Translations under genes and position numbers: made by a program
Shown: one piece after another, positions 7,410-11,422 of the stretch
How positions within the stretch are numbered: position 1 is the first letter of the stretch
Layout of the letters: every line of letters begins with the position of its first letter
Notes under the pieces: model-generated
Told to the model about the DNA's origin: nothing
What the model saw: only the letters and a program-made list of their open reading frames with translations
The model's database searches: none
UHGV virus genome: UHGV-1885740
Strand: one strand, 5' to 3'
DNA: 14,785 nt
Source: a virus

Positions 7410-7672
7410 ATGAAACGTCTGGATCAGCTTAAATTAGTTCAGTACATGGCCTACAGAATTCTTGAAGTCCAGAAAGGTAGCAAAAAAGAGGTTTGCGAGA
7501 AAGCTTATAAGATCTTCACTCGTAAAAAGATGATTGGATGTTACGCCAGACCAAAAAGGCTGACATCTTGGGGTACCTGGAAGAAGAGATCCGCCTTGAA
7601 GAGCAAGAAGAGATCCGCCGTAGTGAGGCAGATTATCAGGCAGCTTGGGAAAACTGGATGAGCAACAAATAA
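7410..7672 (+). CDS. hypothetical protein with an apparent frame change (frame 0 from 7410; -1 frame from about 7526 to TAA 7670-7672)
   Basis: The ORF-track frame (7410-7661) turns K/R-rich with rare AGA/AGG codons after about 7530, while the -1 frame reads DILGYLEEEIRLEEQEEIRRSEADYQAAWENWMSNK with ordinary codons. A T-AAA-AAG motif sits at 7523-7529, and a 15-bp direct repeat lies at 7581-7595 and 7606-7620. Alternatively two genes, the second starting at ATG 7538. Confidence 0.5.
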
Positions 7673-7691
7673 TACAACAAGGTGCACGGTC

Positions 7692-7717
7692 AGGGGCTTA
7701 AAGCCCCTTTCTTTTTG
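7692..7717 (+). terminator. intrinsic terminator closing the rightward gene module
   Basis: Stem AGGGGC/GCCCCT with loop TTAA followed by TTCTTTTTG. Confidence 0.8.
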
Positions 7718-8322
7718 TCTCCTCTTTTCCTACCACAAATGGCCCCGCCTGGCAAATGGAATAATCAACAAGCCAGCAATTAACCCCACTGTACAAACAT
7801 ACATATAAAATAACTATTGCATAATTTTTCATTGTGTGGTAGCAGGGCCATTTTTACACGTTTTTCCTTCCAAAATTGCACGTAATGCAGCATTTGCACA
7901 AAATTTAACCTGATGCATATCTTCAATAGCTTGTCAACAACTAAAAATTCTTATAAGTCATACACTTACATAACTACAAAAGCGTTTTCTACGTGAAAAA
8001 TCGAGTATAACTATAGCCGCCAGATCTCAGAATTTACGTACGCTCGCCATTCTATAGCCTGCTAAGCATTTATTCCAACCATAGAATAACGGAATAGTCA
8101 ATACCTGCATAAAATAATTATTCGTGTAAACTGCATAACATAAATCGGCCCAAGTGTCAACATTTTTCGTAAACAGTCTGGAATTGTCACGTTAGGTTAC
8201 CATAAGCAGAGAAATCTTTAGTCGTCTAATGTTTACTGTACGTTACTATACTAACTGGAATCATTAGATGACTAATAGAAAGATAAGAAATAATTAACAA
8301 TACAATTATTCTATCTGTAACA

Positions 8323-8593
8323 ATAAGGCAACTATGCAAACGAATGGCATGGCGCGACGGAGTCGCGACATAATATAAAAGCAGTAACCATCACCCCCGT
8401 GATAGTTTGTCTGCAATCTATTAATCAGATCATAGTTGCCTTGTATTCAGTTAATCATGACATAACAAGCAAGGCAACTATAGATCTGCTAATAGTTGCC
8501 CTGCTTTTATATTATGTCATGCTAATTATAATCAGTGCGATTATTGTCATGTATAATTATTGTCATGCAAACGAATGGCATGGCTTATCATTT
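8323..8593. repeat. nested inverted/direct repeat element (about 270 bp)
   Basis: AAGGCAACTAT at 8325-8335 and 8471-8481, with inverted copies at 8432-8442 and 8492-8501; 18-bp direct repeat TGCAAACGAATGGCATGG at 8335-8352 and 8566-8583; 18-bp perfect inverted repeat 8367-8384 / 8501-8518; palindrome CGCGAC-GGA-GTCGCG around 8354-8368. Confidence 0.8.
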
Positions 8594-8610
8594 TTGAGTA
8601 AATAATCTAT

Positions 8611-8716
8611 ACGTTAACAGTAAGCTATGTAAACTATTGGGAATGTAAACAGTAAAGGTCATGAACAGTAAGCGAGCGAATAGTAATAGCGTGAATAGTG
8701 ACAGCGTAAACAGTCA
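8611..8716 (+). repeat. tandem iteron-like array (about 7 units, 15-16 bp period, core GTAAACAGT / GAAYAGT)
   Basis: Cores at 8614, 8629, 8645, 8661, 8677, 8692 and 8706; further isolated copies in both orientations at about 8169, 8843, 8989 and 9719. Confidence 0.75.
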
Positions 8717-9298
8717 TGCATGTCAATTATGTTCAGTGTGTTTAATGTGCTTAAAGTGTCATATTATGTCAGACAAGTTTTTCTCCTCTTTGTCAAGTGC
8801 TGCATGAAAAATTTACAAGCTTGTATGGTAGCATTTTTGCGGCCCTGTTTACATTCAGTGTTGTATGTATAATCCTTGTTGTGTGGGCGTTTAGACGTCT
8901 GGACGGTCAGAAGTCTGCAGGTCAATATCTAATCTATTGGCTGCTAACTATATCCCCCCACAAATAATAAGAAATATAATTGTTATGTGCGTAAACAGTA
9001 ACCTATGTTATCAATCCCTGTATGTATCGCCAGTGGTGCGCATAATGGGTATTATGTTAAATTGCCCGTAATGATAAAGATTCTCACAATGATAGGTATT
9101 CTCATTCACCCTCACAAAATAGATTGCAAATGTTGTGCCACTGTGTGAACGGCCTCACCTATTAATTTGCCTCACTGCCTCGATATTTGAGAATTATTAT
9201 AAGAATGAGAAGTATTCCCATTCCGTCCGCCTGGCAGCACTCCAGTCGCTACCGCTCATGACAGGGCAGAACTGGGCCCATTCAGATATTTCTGACTG

Positions 9299-9567
9299 AC
9301 TCTTCAGGTCTGTGTGGGAAAAGACAACCTCTCCGGCGGGACAGGGGGATATCTGAGGAGAAATTGCAGGTCAATTAAAAAATTTACGTGGTGTATGAAG
9401 CGATCTTCAGGCAAGGTATGTATTATGGGATGAAACCCTCTTCAGGCAATGATATTTGTGGGTGTGATATTTGCTGGAAAGCCAGATATGACGGGACTCC
9501 CGGCGGGGCAGGGGTAGTACAGACAGGGAAAATATGGGGATGTAGTTGGGTAAATTGATCAGGCAGG
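9299..9567 (+). repeat. cluster of CTCTTCAGG-family motifs plus a GC-rich direct repeat CCGGCGGG(R)CAGGGG
   Basis: CTCTTCAGG at 9300-9308 and 9438-9446 (also 9850-9858 and 10500-10508); GATCTTCAGG 9402-9411; GATCAGGCAGG 9557-9567; CTCCGGCGGGACAGGGGG 9331-9348 against CTCCCGGCGGGGCAGGGG 9497-9514. Confidence 0.7.
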
Positions 9568-10210
9568 TAGAGTATGGAATATGTTACAGGTATGTTAAAT
9601 AGGGAGGCTGAATATCTGTAGGATTTGTGTGTAAAATCAAAGACTTAAGTGGTGTTGCGGTATTTTCTATAAATAATTCAAGTTTAATAGGTAATATTTG
9701 TCTCTATTCGCTTTGTGTGGTAAACAGATTCAGATGAGATTGGTTTACAAGTGTATACATAATATACAAATTAAAGATACAAGAAACCCCCTCCCCCTTC
9801 GGCTACCATTCACCTTTTCCTCTGACTGGTACTTAAACACTTATTCAGACTCTTCAGGTTATCACCCATATATCATATGGCAGTGACTGGTGTCCTCCGG
9901 CCCCTCTTTCGTCACCCGTCCGCTTCGCCATGCTAATGCCATAGCCAATGGTTCGGTTGTTCACCCTGTTCACTCAGGTGTATCTCCATACCCCTTCAAA
10001 CCGAAGAGAACAGAAAACCCGAATTACTCGGTAAAAGAAAAGAGAAGAACTTAATTTTATCAGGATAGGCAAGAATGTCAAGGCATGACTGCTCACTAAA
10101 CAAGCAAACAGTCATGTGTGGAAGGTAAGTGATTGTGGTGGTGGGAAATTTAGTTGAAAGATGTGTTATAGGTGCGCTTCCAGCACTTTGGCCGGGCAGC
10201 TAATTGTGCG

Positions 10211-10426
10211 TCAGTCCAGCGGTTCATCCTCTACTTCACTGAAATCAATGTTCATGGTCTCTTCCCAACCATCGATCTCAGCACAAGAGTGGAGTTCTTT
10301 AGGGTTTACTCCCAAAGCCTCAGCAACAGAGTCTATATTTAACACCTCTGGCAGGTATGATTCATCGAATTCAAGGTAAATCAGGCCACGAGTGTTGTCA
10401 GCTCCACCAAATATTTCTATCTTCAT
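10211..10426 (-). CDS. hypothetical acidic protein (71 aa)
   Basis: ATG with GAGGAG 5 nt upstream; ORF track; the overlapping plus-strand ORF is S/T-rich antisense. Confidence 0.65.
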   Translation of the reverse strand: MKIEIFGGADNTRGLIYLEFDESYLPEVLNIDSVAEALGVNPKELHSCAEIDGWEETMNIDFSEVEDEPLD

Positions 10427-10547
10427 AAAATCTCCTCTGGAAATGAGAGTGTGAACAGGGTTTTATACGTCCCAATGCACAGGAATTATGCACGTTTGCC
10501 TCTTCAGGCCATGCTTTAGCATGAGGAACCTGTGTGGGCTCGGTGCT

Positions 10548-10787
10548 TCATAGTCTACCACCTCTGAACTCTTCGTGCTCAGGCATAATAGAGAACCAGA
10601 TATCTACGATGTCTTCCCACGTTAGGTCATCAGCCTCAGGATCTACCTGGAGCGAAGATGGAGAATCTTCAGAATCTAAGTTTTCCTCTTTCACTGGCTC
10701 AGCCAAGGGACATATAGTCACTCCTTTGGATGTCTCTTCAGATGCATGTGTGTGTTGATCATGTTCCACCCGTGAGTATTCCGGCAA
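10548..10787 (-). CDS. hypothetical acidic protein (79 aa as drawn; start uncertain)
   Basis: ORF-track frame begins at TTG with no Shine-Dalgarno site and overlaps the small ORF 10759-10860 by 29 nt in another frame; acidic C-terminal region resembles that of 10211-10426. Confidence 0.4.
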   Translation of the reverse strand: MPEYSRVEHDQHTHASEETSKGVTICPLAEPVKEENLDSEDSPSSLQVDPEADDLTWEDIVDIWFSIMPEHEEFRGGRL

Positions 10788-10860
10788 CAGCTGCTATGGA
10801 CGTAATGATCATCAGGATCACCACCAAAACCTCTGACAATGTTTTCATTGTGTATCCCAT
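10759..10860 (-). CDS. small hydrophobic peptide (33 aa, MGYTMKTLSEVLVVILMIITSIAAVAGILTGGT)
   Basis: ATG directly downstream of a strong minus-strand promoter (TTGACA-17-TAATAT); GGAG 3 nt upstream; below the ORF-track cutoff. Confidence 0.45.
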   Translation of the reverse strand: MGYTMKTLSEVLVVILMIITSIAAVAGILTGGT

Positions 10861-10880
10861 ATTCTCCAAATGATGTGTGG

Positions 10881-10909
10881 ATATTATCACTGGAGCGGTA
10901 ATGTGTCAA
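10881..10909 (-). promoter_or_regulatory. sigma70-like promoter on the minus strand (TTGACA-17-TAATAT)
   Basis: Reverse complement of 10904-10909 is TTGACA and of 10881-10886 is TAATAT, with a 17-nt spacer; it is the first promoter downstream of the minus-strand terminator at 11066-11097. Confidence 0.65.
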
Positions 10910-11065
10910 CAGAAACGCCGCGAGGGTTTGGTTAAAATCCGAGCGTATGGTGATTTGGGTCAAAACGGACGTGCGTTCTCGCTACGCTCGAAATATGGAG
11001 TTGTTTGTAGGGAGCTCTTAAACGCTCTGTAATGAGATTAACTGCCCAAGGTATGCAATCGTGCA

Positions 11066-11097
11066 CCAGATAAAGAAAAGGACGCCACAGAGCGTCC
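11066..11097 (-). terminator. intrinsic terminator (minus strand)
   Basis: Stem GGACGC/GCGTCC (11080-11085 / 11092-11097) followed on the minus strand by CTTTTCTTTATCT; 26 nt after the stop of CDS 11123-11422. Confidence 0.7.
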
Positions 11098-11122
11098 TAG
11101 GTGTCTTAAATTTGATATTTTG

Positions 11123-11422
11123 CTATACCCACGAGGGCTTATCAAGGTTGGAGTAGCTGAAAGGTGTCAAAAGGTGACTGTCAAAATCTCTCAAACTATC
11201 CAAATCTTTTTCCTCGTCCTGACACCATCTGTGCCTACATTTGTTGTTGTAGTGCATGGAATGCATAGCGTTCTGCAACTTAACAGGCACAAGTGATTCA
11301 GGAGTAGATAGTATTGTTGGGTATGCCAGAACCACCTCAAACAGTGGAAACACATCGAAACTAAAGTCTACCTCTGCAGAGGTTGATGGCATGTAGGAGT
11401 ATTTAGCCGCCTTTGTAGACAT
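11123..11422 (-). CDS. hypothetical protein (99 aa)
   Basis: ORF-track frame 11123-11434 begins at GTG; ATG at 11422 follows GAGGTGG; closely follows the upstream gene. Confidence 0.65.
   Translation of the reverse strand: MSTKAAKYSYMPSTSAEVDFSFDVFPLFEVVLAYPTILSTPESLVPVKLQNAMHSMHYNNKCRHRWCQDEEKDLDSLRDFDSHLLTPFSYSNLDKPSWV

Follow-up and report, generated by a model that had tools for sequence, protein, structure and literature searches.

What is the function of a short word that recurs on a single strand in a gene-poor gap of a phage genome? The question is raised by the 9-mer CTCTTCAGG in a 14,785-nucleotide stretch of the virus genome UHGV-1885740 (hereafter the window), where a sequence-only reading had proposed a directional signal such as a phage-specific promoter, an RNA processing site or a recognition site for a nicking or packaging enzyme. 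By nucleotide comparison, in which positions 8800-10600 are matched by 122 phage records at 90-97% identity, the window can be assigned to an rV5-like coliphage of the genus Vequintavirus with a genome of ~137 kb. Its gene blocks converge, the rightward one ending near 7661 and the leftward one at 10211, and leave between them a gap at 7700-10200 that is poor in open reading frames (ORFs). The rV5 genome paper of 2013 draws this gap as a “non-coding” box of 2.4 kb whose function is not given, and our literature search found no paper that assigns one to this terminal region. The word is strand-biased, non-random in its distribution and adjoins a physical genome end, which upholds its description as a directional signal. 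We tentatively favour the view that its copies are oriented, cis-acting protein-recognition sites of an end-processing or packaging region, located in the non-coding flank of the direct terminal repeat (DTR) on the left genome arm.

A direct search of the window found exact copies of the word at the four positions first reported, all on the plus strand, and none on the minus strand. Two of the near copies proposed alongside stand after a shift of one nucleotide (from 9402 to 9403 and from 10733 to 10734). The third, at 9557 (TTGATCAGG), is poor, with three mismatches, and is the counterpart of the 9403 copy within a degenerate tandem duplication. The copies, numbered c1 to c5, and the two elements reported with them, a GC-rich direct repeat and a small palindrome between two leftward ORFs, are as follows (the panel consists of 16 Vequintavirus genomes):

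9300-9308, plus strand: c1, exact CTCTTCAGG, 69 bp inside the inner boundary of the DTR; found in 16 of 16 panel genomes, in one of them with 1 mismatch.
9403-9411, plus strand: c2, ATCTTCAGG, 1 mismatch; exact CTCTTCAGG in 14 of 16 relatives.
9438-9446, plus strand: c3, exact CTCTTCAGG, 35 nt after c2.
9850-9858, plus strand: c4, exact CTCTTCAGG, within an ultraconserved block.
10500-10508, plus strand: c5, exact CTCTTCAGG, in a 121-bp gap between two leftward ORFs (10548-10787 and 10211-10426).
10734-10742, plus strand: near copy CTCTTCAGA, 1 mismatch, inside the ORF 10548-10787; it differs between relatives.
9333-9347, plus strand: first copy of the GC-rich repeat, CCGGCGGGACAGGGG.
9500-9514, plus strand: second copy of the GC-rich repeat, CCGGCGGGGCAGGGG.
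10510-10523, no strand: small palindrome CATGC-TTTA-GCATG adjoining c5, mostly invariant in the panel.

The near copy at 10734 is probably not a member of the array. The c2 sequence of the window, shared with PMBT16, is a derived variant, since most relatives carry the exact word at this position. Copies c2 and c3 form a 35-nt repeat of ~1.9 copies and c5 with its flanks reads GCCT-CTTC-AGGC. The spacing from c1 to c5 is irregular (103, 35, 412 and 650 bp) over a span of 1.2 kb. That such a series is unlikely to arise by chance, as had been argued from the letters, is borne out by a family-wise null: only 3 of 1000 dinucleotide-preserving shuffles hold any 9-mer with at least four same-strand copies within 1.3 kb. 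The real window holds two such clusters, the CTCTTCAGG array and GTAAACAGT at 8169-8991. Allowing at most one mismatch, the window contains 8 matches to the word (2.66 expected), and the word is enriched in the junction relative to the rest of a related genome (P ~8e-9). The GC-rich repeat is also real: its copies are identical at 14 of 15 positions, 167 bp apart, and lie within a diverged tandem duplication of ~150 bp (9285-9428 against 9451-9584; score 50 against a null of 26 ± 5). Relatives retain the GC-rich repeat only loosely, and an IMG/VR scan with the GC-rich 15-mer returned only unrelated GC-rich contigs. The description of the surroundings as AT-rich needs correction. Positions 9201-9600 have 47% GC, with a G>C skew of +0.26 to +0.33; the AT-rich portion of the gap is 7800-9000 (34-38% GC), with a further AT-rich stretch at ~9640-9780 and the GC-skew maximum at ~9800.

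The position of the array acquires meaning from the ends of the virion DNA. The DTR placed in this window by homology, and the elements in or near it, are:

8772-9231, no strand: DTR (physical genome ends), 460 bp, homology-mapped at ~96% identity to the terminal repeat of phage Gotham.
9036-9063, plus strand: dif-like XerC/XerD site GGTGCGCATAA-TGGGTA-TTATGTTAAAT, inside the DTR.
9182-9188, plus strand: GATATTT, 49 nt before the inner boundary of the DTR.
9285-9291, plus strand: GATATTT copy, 54 nt past the boundary and 8 nt upstream of c1.
9451-9457 and 9466-9472, plus strand: further GATATTT copies, directly after c3.

With a slash marking the boundary, the outer edge of the predicted repeat reads /GACAAGTTTTTCTCC... 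and the inner one ...CCGTCCGCC/TGGCAGC. The Gotham record carries an annotated terminal repeat in which the first 459 nt equal the last 459 nt, the record of phage Aya begins on the same base as the Gotham repeat, and published DTR lengths are 459 bp (Gotham) and 458 bp (EdH4/HdK5). Because the repeat maps to 8772-9231, the array would lie in unique DNA, no more than 1.3 kb inward from one genome end. The boundaries are kept in KPP-1, Hena1, PVP-SE1 and Av-05. The conserved boundary sequences read ...GTCCGTC/TA... or ...GCC/TGGCAGC..., and /AACAC...TGTCAAG at the outer edge. As a separate observation, indel hot-spots among relatives are found between short repeats at 9243-9254 and 9349-9369. 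They include a 32-bp segment directly inside the boundary, present or absent between direct repeats of GGCAGCACTCC(A/T)GT, and also a 21-bp indel.

Nine genomes were aligned at the inner DTR boundary, which is experimental or annotated for Vequintavirus, KPP-1 and Hena1 and homology-inferred for the rest. The alignment shows that the boundary sequence is itself conserved. GATATTT is found exactly at −49/−50 in all nine, representing at least seven genera, and never on the minus strand. It recurs in the nine genomes at +24 to +120 past the boundary, always on the plus strand, and GATATTTG is enriched in the junction (P ~9e-8). GATATTT is a strong candidate for the element that places the terminal cut. 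In the first 1.6 kb past the boundary of the same nine genomes, CTTCAG[GA] cores number 33 on the plus strand versus 2 on the minus strand. PVP-SE1 and phiTE have been published as circularly permuted and terminally redundant. They share the boundary, GATATTT and the dif architecture with relatives whose exact terminal repeats have been mapped, and their termini may be worth re-examining.

The count and strand distribution of the word were determined in two complete genomes. Gotham (137 kb) has 9 copies, 5 of them in 1.2 kb beside the terminal repeat (the one equivalent to 9403 is an exact CTCTTCAGG) and 4 inside large genes. PVP-SE1 (Seunavirus, 146 kb) has C[AT]CTTCAGG eight times. Four of these copies, in one orientation, occupy 380 bp of the gene-free terminal gap, which runs from the last left-arm gene to the terminal region, and the other four are in genes or a tRNA. 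Every non-coding copy in the two genomes falls therefore in the terminal gap, and none is found upstream of genes elsewhere, an arrangement that disposes of the proposed phage-specific promoter. Within coding regions the counts of the 6-7-nt core equal the maximal-order Markov expectation on both strands; they are accounted for by a sense strand rich in CTG-AAG/GAA codons. Polar chromosome words, such as the FtsK signal KOPS (GGGNAGGG) and the RecBCD signal Chi (GCTGGTGG), resemble the 9-mer in being short and strand-specific and in keeping a constant orientation with respect to a DNA end or a dif-type site. KOPS and Chi are, however, skewed genome-wide, whereas the window word has no skew beyond codon-driven composition, and we rejected a genome-wide polar word of this type after finding no strand skew beyond composition in the two genomes. 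A search of the window for Chi sites found none. Since the copies are local to the terminal non-coding gap, both a genome-wide promoter and a Chi/KOPS-like signal are ruled out.

The five sites are found at the same positions in all 16 panel genomes, with 43 of 45 motif columns invariant versus 72% in the surrounding non-coding DNA. The nucleotide similarity of the array region and of the adjacent gene ends at the genus boundary, and the CTCTTCAGG word is present in genera whose flanking DNA and genes are unalignable. The 9-mer is exact and its flanks are randomised over the 16 genomes and four genera with unalignable DNA, a pattern that indicates purifying selection on the word itself. Three additional copies in Escherichia phage I29 (ON286975.1) were discarded as an assembly artefact: this record has a 100%-identical 546-bp duplication of the region directly inside the terminal repeat, joined via a 60-nt inverted segment.

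For the further genera, orientation was provided by the dif-like landmark in the terminal repeat. The Klebsiella phage KPP-1 (Mydovirus), whose DTR is mapped at 116,316-116,829, has, within 7.6 kb, three exact copies where 0.06 would be expected, its gap also holds CACTTCAGG, and its relative L255 has seven copies of the motif family. L255 was the one true relative kept by a BLAST filter from an IMG/VR scan for two 9-mers 15-45 nt apart, whose ~120 matches are about the number expected by chance. In Mydovirus, in the Seunavirus PVP-SE1 (the four gap copies) and in the Certrevirus CR8, the motif family keeps the strand and the side of the DTR that it has in the window. The distance of the first copy past the boundary is +69 in the window, +101 in Gotham, +165 in PVP-SE1, +276 in CR8 and +309 in KPP-1. 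Phage Av-05 (Avunavirus) has the variant CCTTCAGAGAT three times directly at the boundary (+6, +21 and +49).

The landmark itself is, in our view, more surprising than the 9-mer array. The site at 9036-9063 has the layout of an 11-bp XerC arm, a 6-bp spacer and an 11-bp XerD arm; both arms are identical to those of Escherichia coli dif (GGTGCGCATAA-TGTATA-TTATGTTAAAT) and the central hexamer has two changes. A 50-nt probe finds a single match in 5403 of 5426 complete E. coli genomes, at chromosomal dif. The site is kept in all 16 panel genomes and is the only part of the repeat interior that nhmmer recovered in another genus. Equivalent sites occur in KPP-1, L255, Hena1 (in the annotated terminal repeat), PVP-SE1, Av-05, phiTE, CR8 and W70, that is, in Mydovirus, Seunavirus, Avunavirus, Certrevirus, Henunavirus and the W70-like phages. 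The XerD arm is perfect in all eight of these other lineages, and their spacers (mostly NGTGTA) all differ from that of the host. Because it is located in the DTR, the site would be present at both genome ends in direct orientation. Our literature search found no paper linking these phages with Xer or dif, and a dif copy in the DTR is apparently previously unreported. The site might serve in cyclisation or resolution by Xer, or might sequester XerCD. If functional, it would add large lytic phages to the integrative filamentous phages that exploit Xer. An imperfect 18-bp repeat of ~1.9 copies (AATGATAAAGATTCTCAC / AATGATAGGTATTCTCAT) follows the XerD arm after 5-7 nt, at 9068-9103. It is the “repeat_region” annotated in phages nomo and Alma and falls below the TRF threshold in the window.

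The sequence around the copies was inspected for coding capacity, folds and transcription signals. The small ORFs between the 9-mer copies in the gap lack a credible start with a ribosome-binding site, the ORFs flanking the array are of unknown function, and an Rfam covariance-model search of 7500-11200 gave no match at E<=1. The following non-coding features were found on the left-arm side:

9786-10120, no strand: ultraconserved non-coding block (~330 bp), nearly all columns invariant in the 16 genomes; it contains c4.
10081 to 10054, minus strand: strong σ70-like promoter TTGACA-16-TG-TAAAAT (consensus scan only).
10031 to 10019, minus strand: terminator-like hairpin with a T-run, after the promoter-like site (consensus scan).
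9806 to 9796, minus strand: G5AG5 run.

The block is more conserved than the flanking genes, in genomes that otherwise differ by 3-10%. Its folding z-scores (−1.4 and −0.4) are not significant on either strand, and no homolog of it was found outside the genus. According to the consensus scan, terminator-like sites close both convergent operons, at 7692-7708 on the plus strand and at 10031-10019 on the minus strand, so that c1-c4 lie beyond the site ending the leftward operon. The RNA processing site proposed from the letters gains no support from this position, though it may still apply.

Most copies of the word are “naked” 9-mers, with real stems in only ~6 of 24. At the window copies the stems are of 2-4 bp and none is reported by the terminator scan; a stem of at least 5 bp, GC-rich and followed by a T run, accompanies only some copies in KPP-1, L255, PVP-SE1 and CR8. 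The strong inverted repeats of other genera (GGAGCCT-CTTC-AGGCTCC, GGGCCT-CTTC-AGGCCC) look like leftward-strand terminators following a gene, and other copies in these genera overlap the −35/spacer of leftward TTGACC-17-TATACT promoters. Within the window, c3 is the sole copy that passes the promoter scan (minus strand, TTGCCT-16-CATAAT, 9 of 12 positions). Copy c5 is followed 9 nt downstream by CATAAT and, read from the sequence, is marginal as a promoter; c1, c2 and c4 lack both a −10 element and a stem. Whereas CTTCAGG is fixed, any of the four bases (T/A/C/G) occurs at position 2 of the motif, and therefore the conserved unit is the word and not a fold. A hairpin with a conserved loop was rejected as the general form, given the few real stems and a variable position 2 that would break the closing pair. 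The likeness of GCCUGAAGAGGC to the lambda nutL boxB sequence was likewise set aside as coincidence, the former being one base short in the loop and most copies being stemless. There is a real association with downstream TGTG(T/G)G, found within 30 nt of 9 of 23 copies (~1 expected from the whole-locus density, a significant excess) versus 1 of 23 upstream. The G+T richness of the locality and GATATTTGTGGG confound this association in part.

How these observations are best combined is a matter of judgement. What is observed is where the copies lie, their strand bias and locality, and their conservation both within genera and between them; from this anatomy and from comparison we infer the binding of a protein, its identity and a role in packaging or end processing. 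A sequence-specific phage protein, small-terminase-like or another end-processing factor, would bind the direct repeats on double-stranded DNA. The bound repeats would mark the “genome interior” side of the junction, and the protein would aid the assembly or orientation of the complex responsible for cutting and packaging the chromosome end, or for handling it in some other way. Because the c1-c4 zone is bracketed by terminator-like sites and has no plausible ORFs, the word is more naturally read as acting in DNA than in mRNA. The earlier proposal of a nicking or packaging recognition site would thus hold in kind, for a directional signal beside a physical genome end. As judged from the nine-genome alignment, the array would be the outermost layer, and the one that varies between lineages, of a one-stranded repeat system common to the family. 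This system would consist of the DTR boundaries, GATATTT at −49 recurring past the boundary, and then the CNCTTCAGG-type repeats, all around the inner cut at the concatemer junction.

Several observations weigh against this assignment. The copies are irregularly spaced over 1.2 kb, wider than classical pac/cos accessory arrays. The motif was not found within 1.6 kb of the terminus in Hena1 and phiTE and W70 has one core there, so it cannot be essential to the packaging chemistry of the family. The 9-mer is accordingly not shared by all relatives with the same terminase and cut sites, as GATATTT at −49 is, and the conserved boundary sequences together with GATATTT would be enough to define the cut. 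Some KPP-1, L255 and CR8 copies are 1.3-4.5 kb inside the genome, between or within genes. Finally, several copies fall on leftward transcription signals (loops of terminator-like hairpins, −35/spacer of promoters), and CATAAT stands at a promoter-like distance after c3 and c5.

Among known systems the array is best classed with the short oriented repeats that flank a phage packaging or terminal-repeat junction. Terminase accessory arrays include the R sites of lambda cosB, the SPP1 pacL/pacR boxes and the hexamer repeats of P1 pac. They have in common with the window several short repeats near the cut that makes the virion end, on a defined side of it and conserved among packaging relatives; multiple repeats beside the end-generating cut are found at +69 in the window and at +6, +21 and +49 in Av-05. 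The cosB and pac arrays, however, span ~100-300 bp and have demonstrated binding of the small terminase (or IHF), whereas the present array is irregular over 1.2 kb, is associated with exact short terminal repeats and not with cos or headful ends, and is missing from some sister genera. In T7, the SRL/SRR short-repeat arrays flank the terminal repetition and the concatemer junction has a pause site; concatemer processing requires a short signal next to the repeat, in a specific orientation. The likeness is a short exact DTR that has arrays of short words to either side, in gene-free DNA; in the window these words are GTAAACAG-type on the right arm and CTCTTCAGG on the left arm. The T7 arrays differ in being dense, near-tandem 7-mers without sequence similarity to the window words, and the target of the T7 pause signal, the T7 RNA polymerase, is missing from rV5-like phages. 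For T5, PMC13250531 cites Heusterspreute et al. (1987) for repeats at the inner end of the terminal repeat, in the injection-stop region of first-step transfer. In both phages the inner edge of the terminal repeat is marked by DNA without genes and with many short repeats, but the T5 repeat is of ~10 kb and has pre-early genes that are expressed owing to the stop. As the repeat here is of 460 bp and has no genes, a two-step transfer of the T5 type has no obvious basis.

The strongest competitor is a transcription-linked element of the leftward, outward-pointing early region, which we consider possible though unlikely. The minus-strand word CCTGAAGAG would be an operator or activator box over the −35/spacer of some of the promoters and over terminator loops, and a regulator or roadblock would control or stop transcription heading toward the terminal repeat, with a logic comparable to that of the T7 RNA polymerase pause site at the concatemer junction. 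KPP-1 and L255 have TTGACC-TGAAGAG...-17-TATACT/TATATT promoters and, directly after a gene stop codon, GGAGCC-TGAAGA-GGCTCC-TTTTCTTTT; strong hairpins surround the motif in PVP-SE1 and CR8. The c3 promoter-like site and the location of c5 between two leftward genes with CATAAT downstream argue in the same sense, and the rV5 genome paper expected terminators in this region and found none. Yet c1, c2, c4 and the four gap copies of PVP-SE1 have no −10, most copies have no usable stem, c1-c4 are downstream of the terminator-like site at 10031-10019, the motif is missing from all other intergenic regions of the two genomes, and the Av-05 copies abut the DNA cut site. The copies might also be functionless relics of duplicated regulatory cassettes, spread by local duplication or recombination in the manner of the promoter-early stem-loop (PeSL) cassettes of T4-type phages, an idea to which we give little credence. 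PeSL cassettes are intergenic terminator and promoter modules repeated among small early genes, as is the terminator and promoter pair of KPP-1. The degenerate tandem duplication over part of the region, the c2-c3 repeat and the indel hot-spots between short repeats are also consistent with relics. In contrast to PeSL cassettes, the conserved unit here is 9 nt long, most copies lack both a stem and a −10, and the unit is confined to one genome end. A relic is moreover difficult to reconcile with an exact 9-mer amid randomised flanks, conserved over 16 genomes and four genera of otherwise unalignable DNA, and the duplication alignment leaves c1 and c3 unexplained. An accident of chance or composition has practically no probability left. 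Several other 9-mers do reach four copies in the window, but the explanation is already refuted by the shuffles, by positional conservation in the panel and by replication in other genera.

Two further explanations call on replication or recombination instead of packaging. The copies could be replication-origin iterons that bind an initiator beside an AT-rich unwinding region (~9640-9780); transcriptional activation or an R-loop primer would come from the G5AG5 run and the leftward promoter at 10081. This is improbable. Direct repeats on one strand, the adjoining AT-rich stretch with the GC-skew maximum at ~9800, a strong promoter without a gene behind it and the ultraconserved block all suit an origin; iterons, however, are regularly spaced and these copies are not, the block has no counterpart in the other motif-bearing genera, there is no adjacent initiator gene, and, in agreement with the rV5 authors, we ascribe the skew switch to the change in gene orientation. 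Even less probable is that the words assist or guide recombination at the dif-like site by loading or orienting a Xer-activating factor or a translocase. In its favour, the array keeps to one orientation and, relative to this site, always to the side of the XerD arm, and activation of Xer by FtsK has been reported from the XerD side. Against such a function, CTCTTCAGG does not resemble the FtsK signal of E. coli (GGGNAGGG), the window has KOPS-like octamers as often as expected by chance, no polar skew was found at the genome scale, and Hena1, phiTE and W70 have the dif-like site without the motif. A broader scheme, which we regard as a long shot, would join the GATATTT and CNCTTCAGG repeats, the boundaries and the dif mimic in a single end-handling module. 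The host XerC/XerD would cyclise the injected genome or resolve replication products, and the array on the XerD-arm side would load or orient an activating or packaging-coupling factor. If this were true, a strictly lytic myovirus family would be using the chromosome-dimer-resolution system of its host. An analogy with the pseudo-ToxI of phiTE, a type III antitoxin mimic, was also considered and rejected: that locus is at 106.7 kb versus 50.0 kb for the dif/terminal region, and where tandem repeats of ~36 nt would be expected at a homologous locus, the window has only 1.9 copies of a 35-nt unit.

The oriented end-processing or packaging sites that we favour bear on phages of practical interest, as rV5-like phages (Vequintavirinae) are among the coliphages most often isolated and used in therapy. 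The genome-end module is now placed at base resolution, with its boundaries, GATATTT at a fixed distance, the oriented 9-mer arrays and the dif mimic. It offers mutable targets for packaging specificity and bears on phage engineering, on transduction risk and on correct genome start coordinates.

The right-arm side of the gap and the outer part of the terminal repeat (8100-9000) have other repeated words. GTAAACAGT occurs four times on the plus strand (8169, 8645, 8706 and 8991) and once as an inverted copy (8845-8852), and AAGGCAACTAT/ATAGTTGCC is found in both orientations at 8325-8505. The exact 20-mer ATGCAAACGAATGGCATGGC is present twice, at 8334 and 8565, and a perfect 18-bp inverted repeat pairs 8367-8384 with 8501-8518. 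In KPP-1 the right-arm side has a different word, CAAATGATAA, three times. The homolog of the plus-strand ORF 7410-7661 is named “DNA translocase FtsK” in phage nomo, a label that we dropped as it has no Pfam support. The ORF product has 83 amino acids, its sole match is a PHROG of unknown function over the first 41 residues, and the label is probably an error passed on between annotations. Lastly, 18-19 “Campylobacter phage” records (MG0656xx, several UNVERIFIED, host Campylobacter jejuni) are 90-100% identical to the region and carry a Vequintavirus classification; they are probably coliphage contaminants or wrongly labelled.

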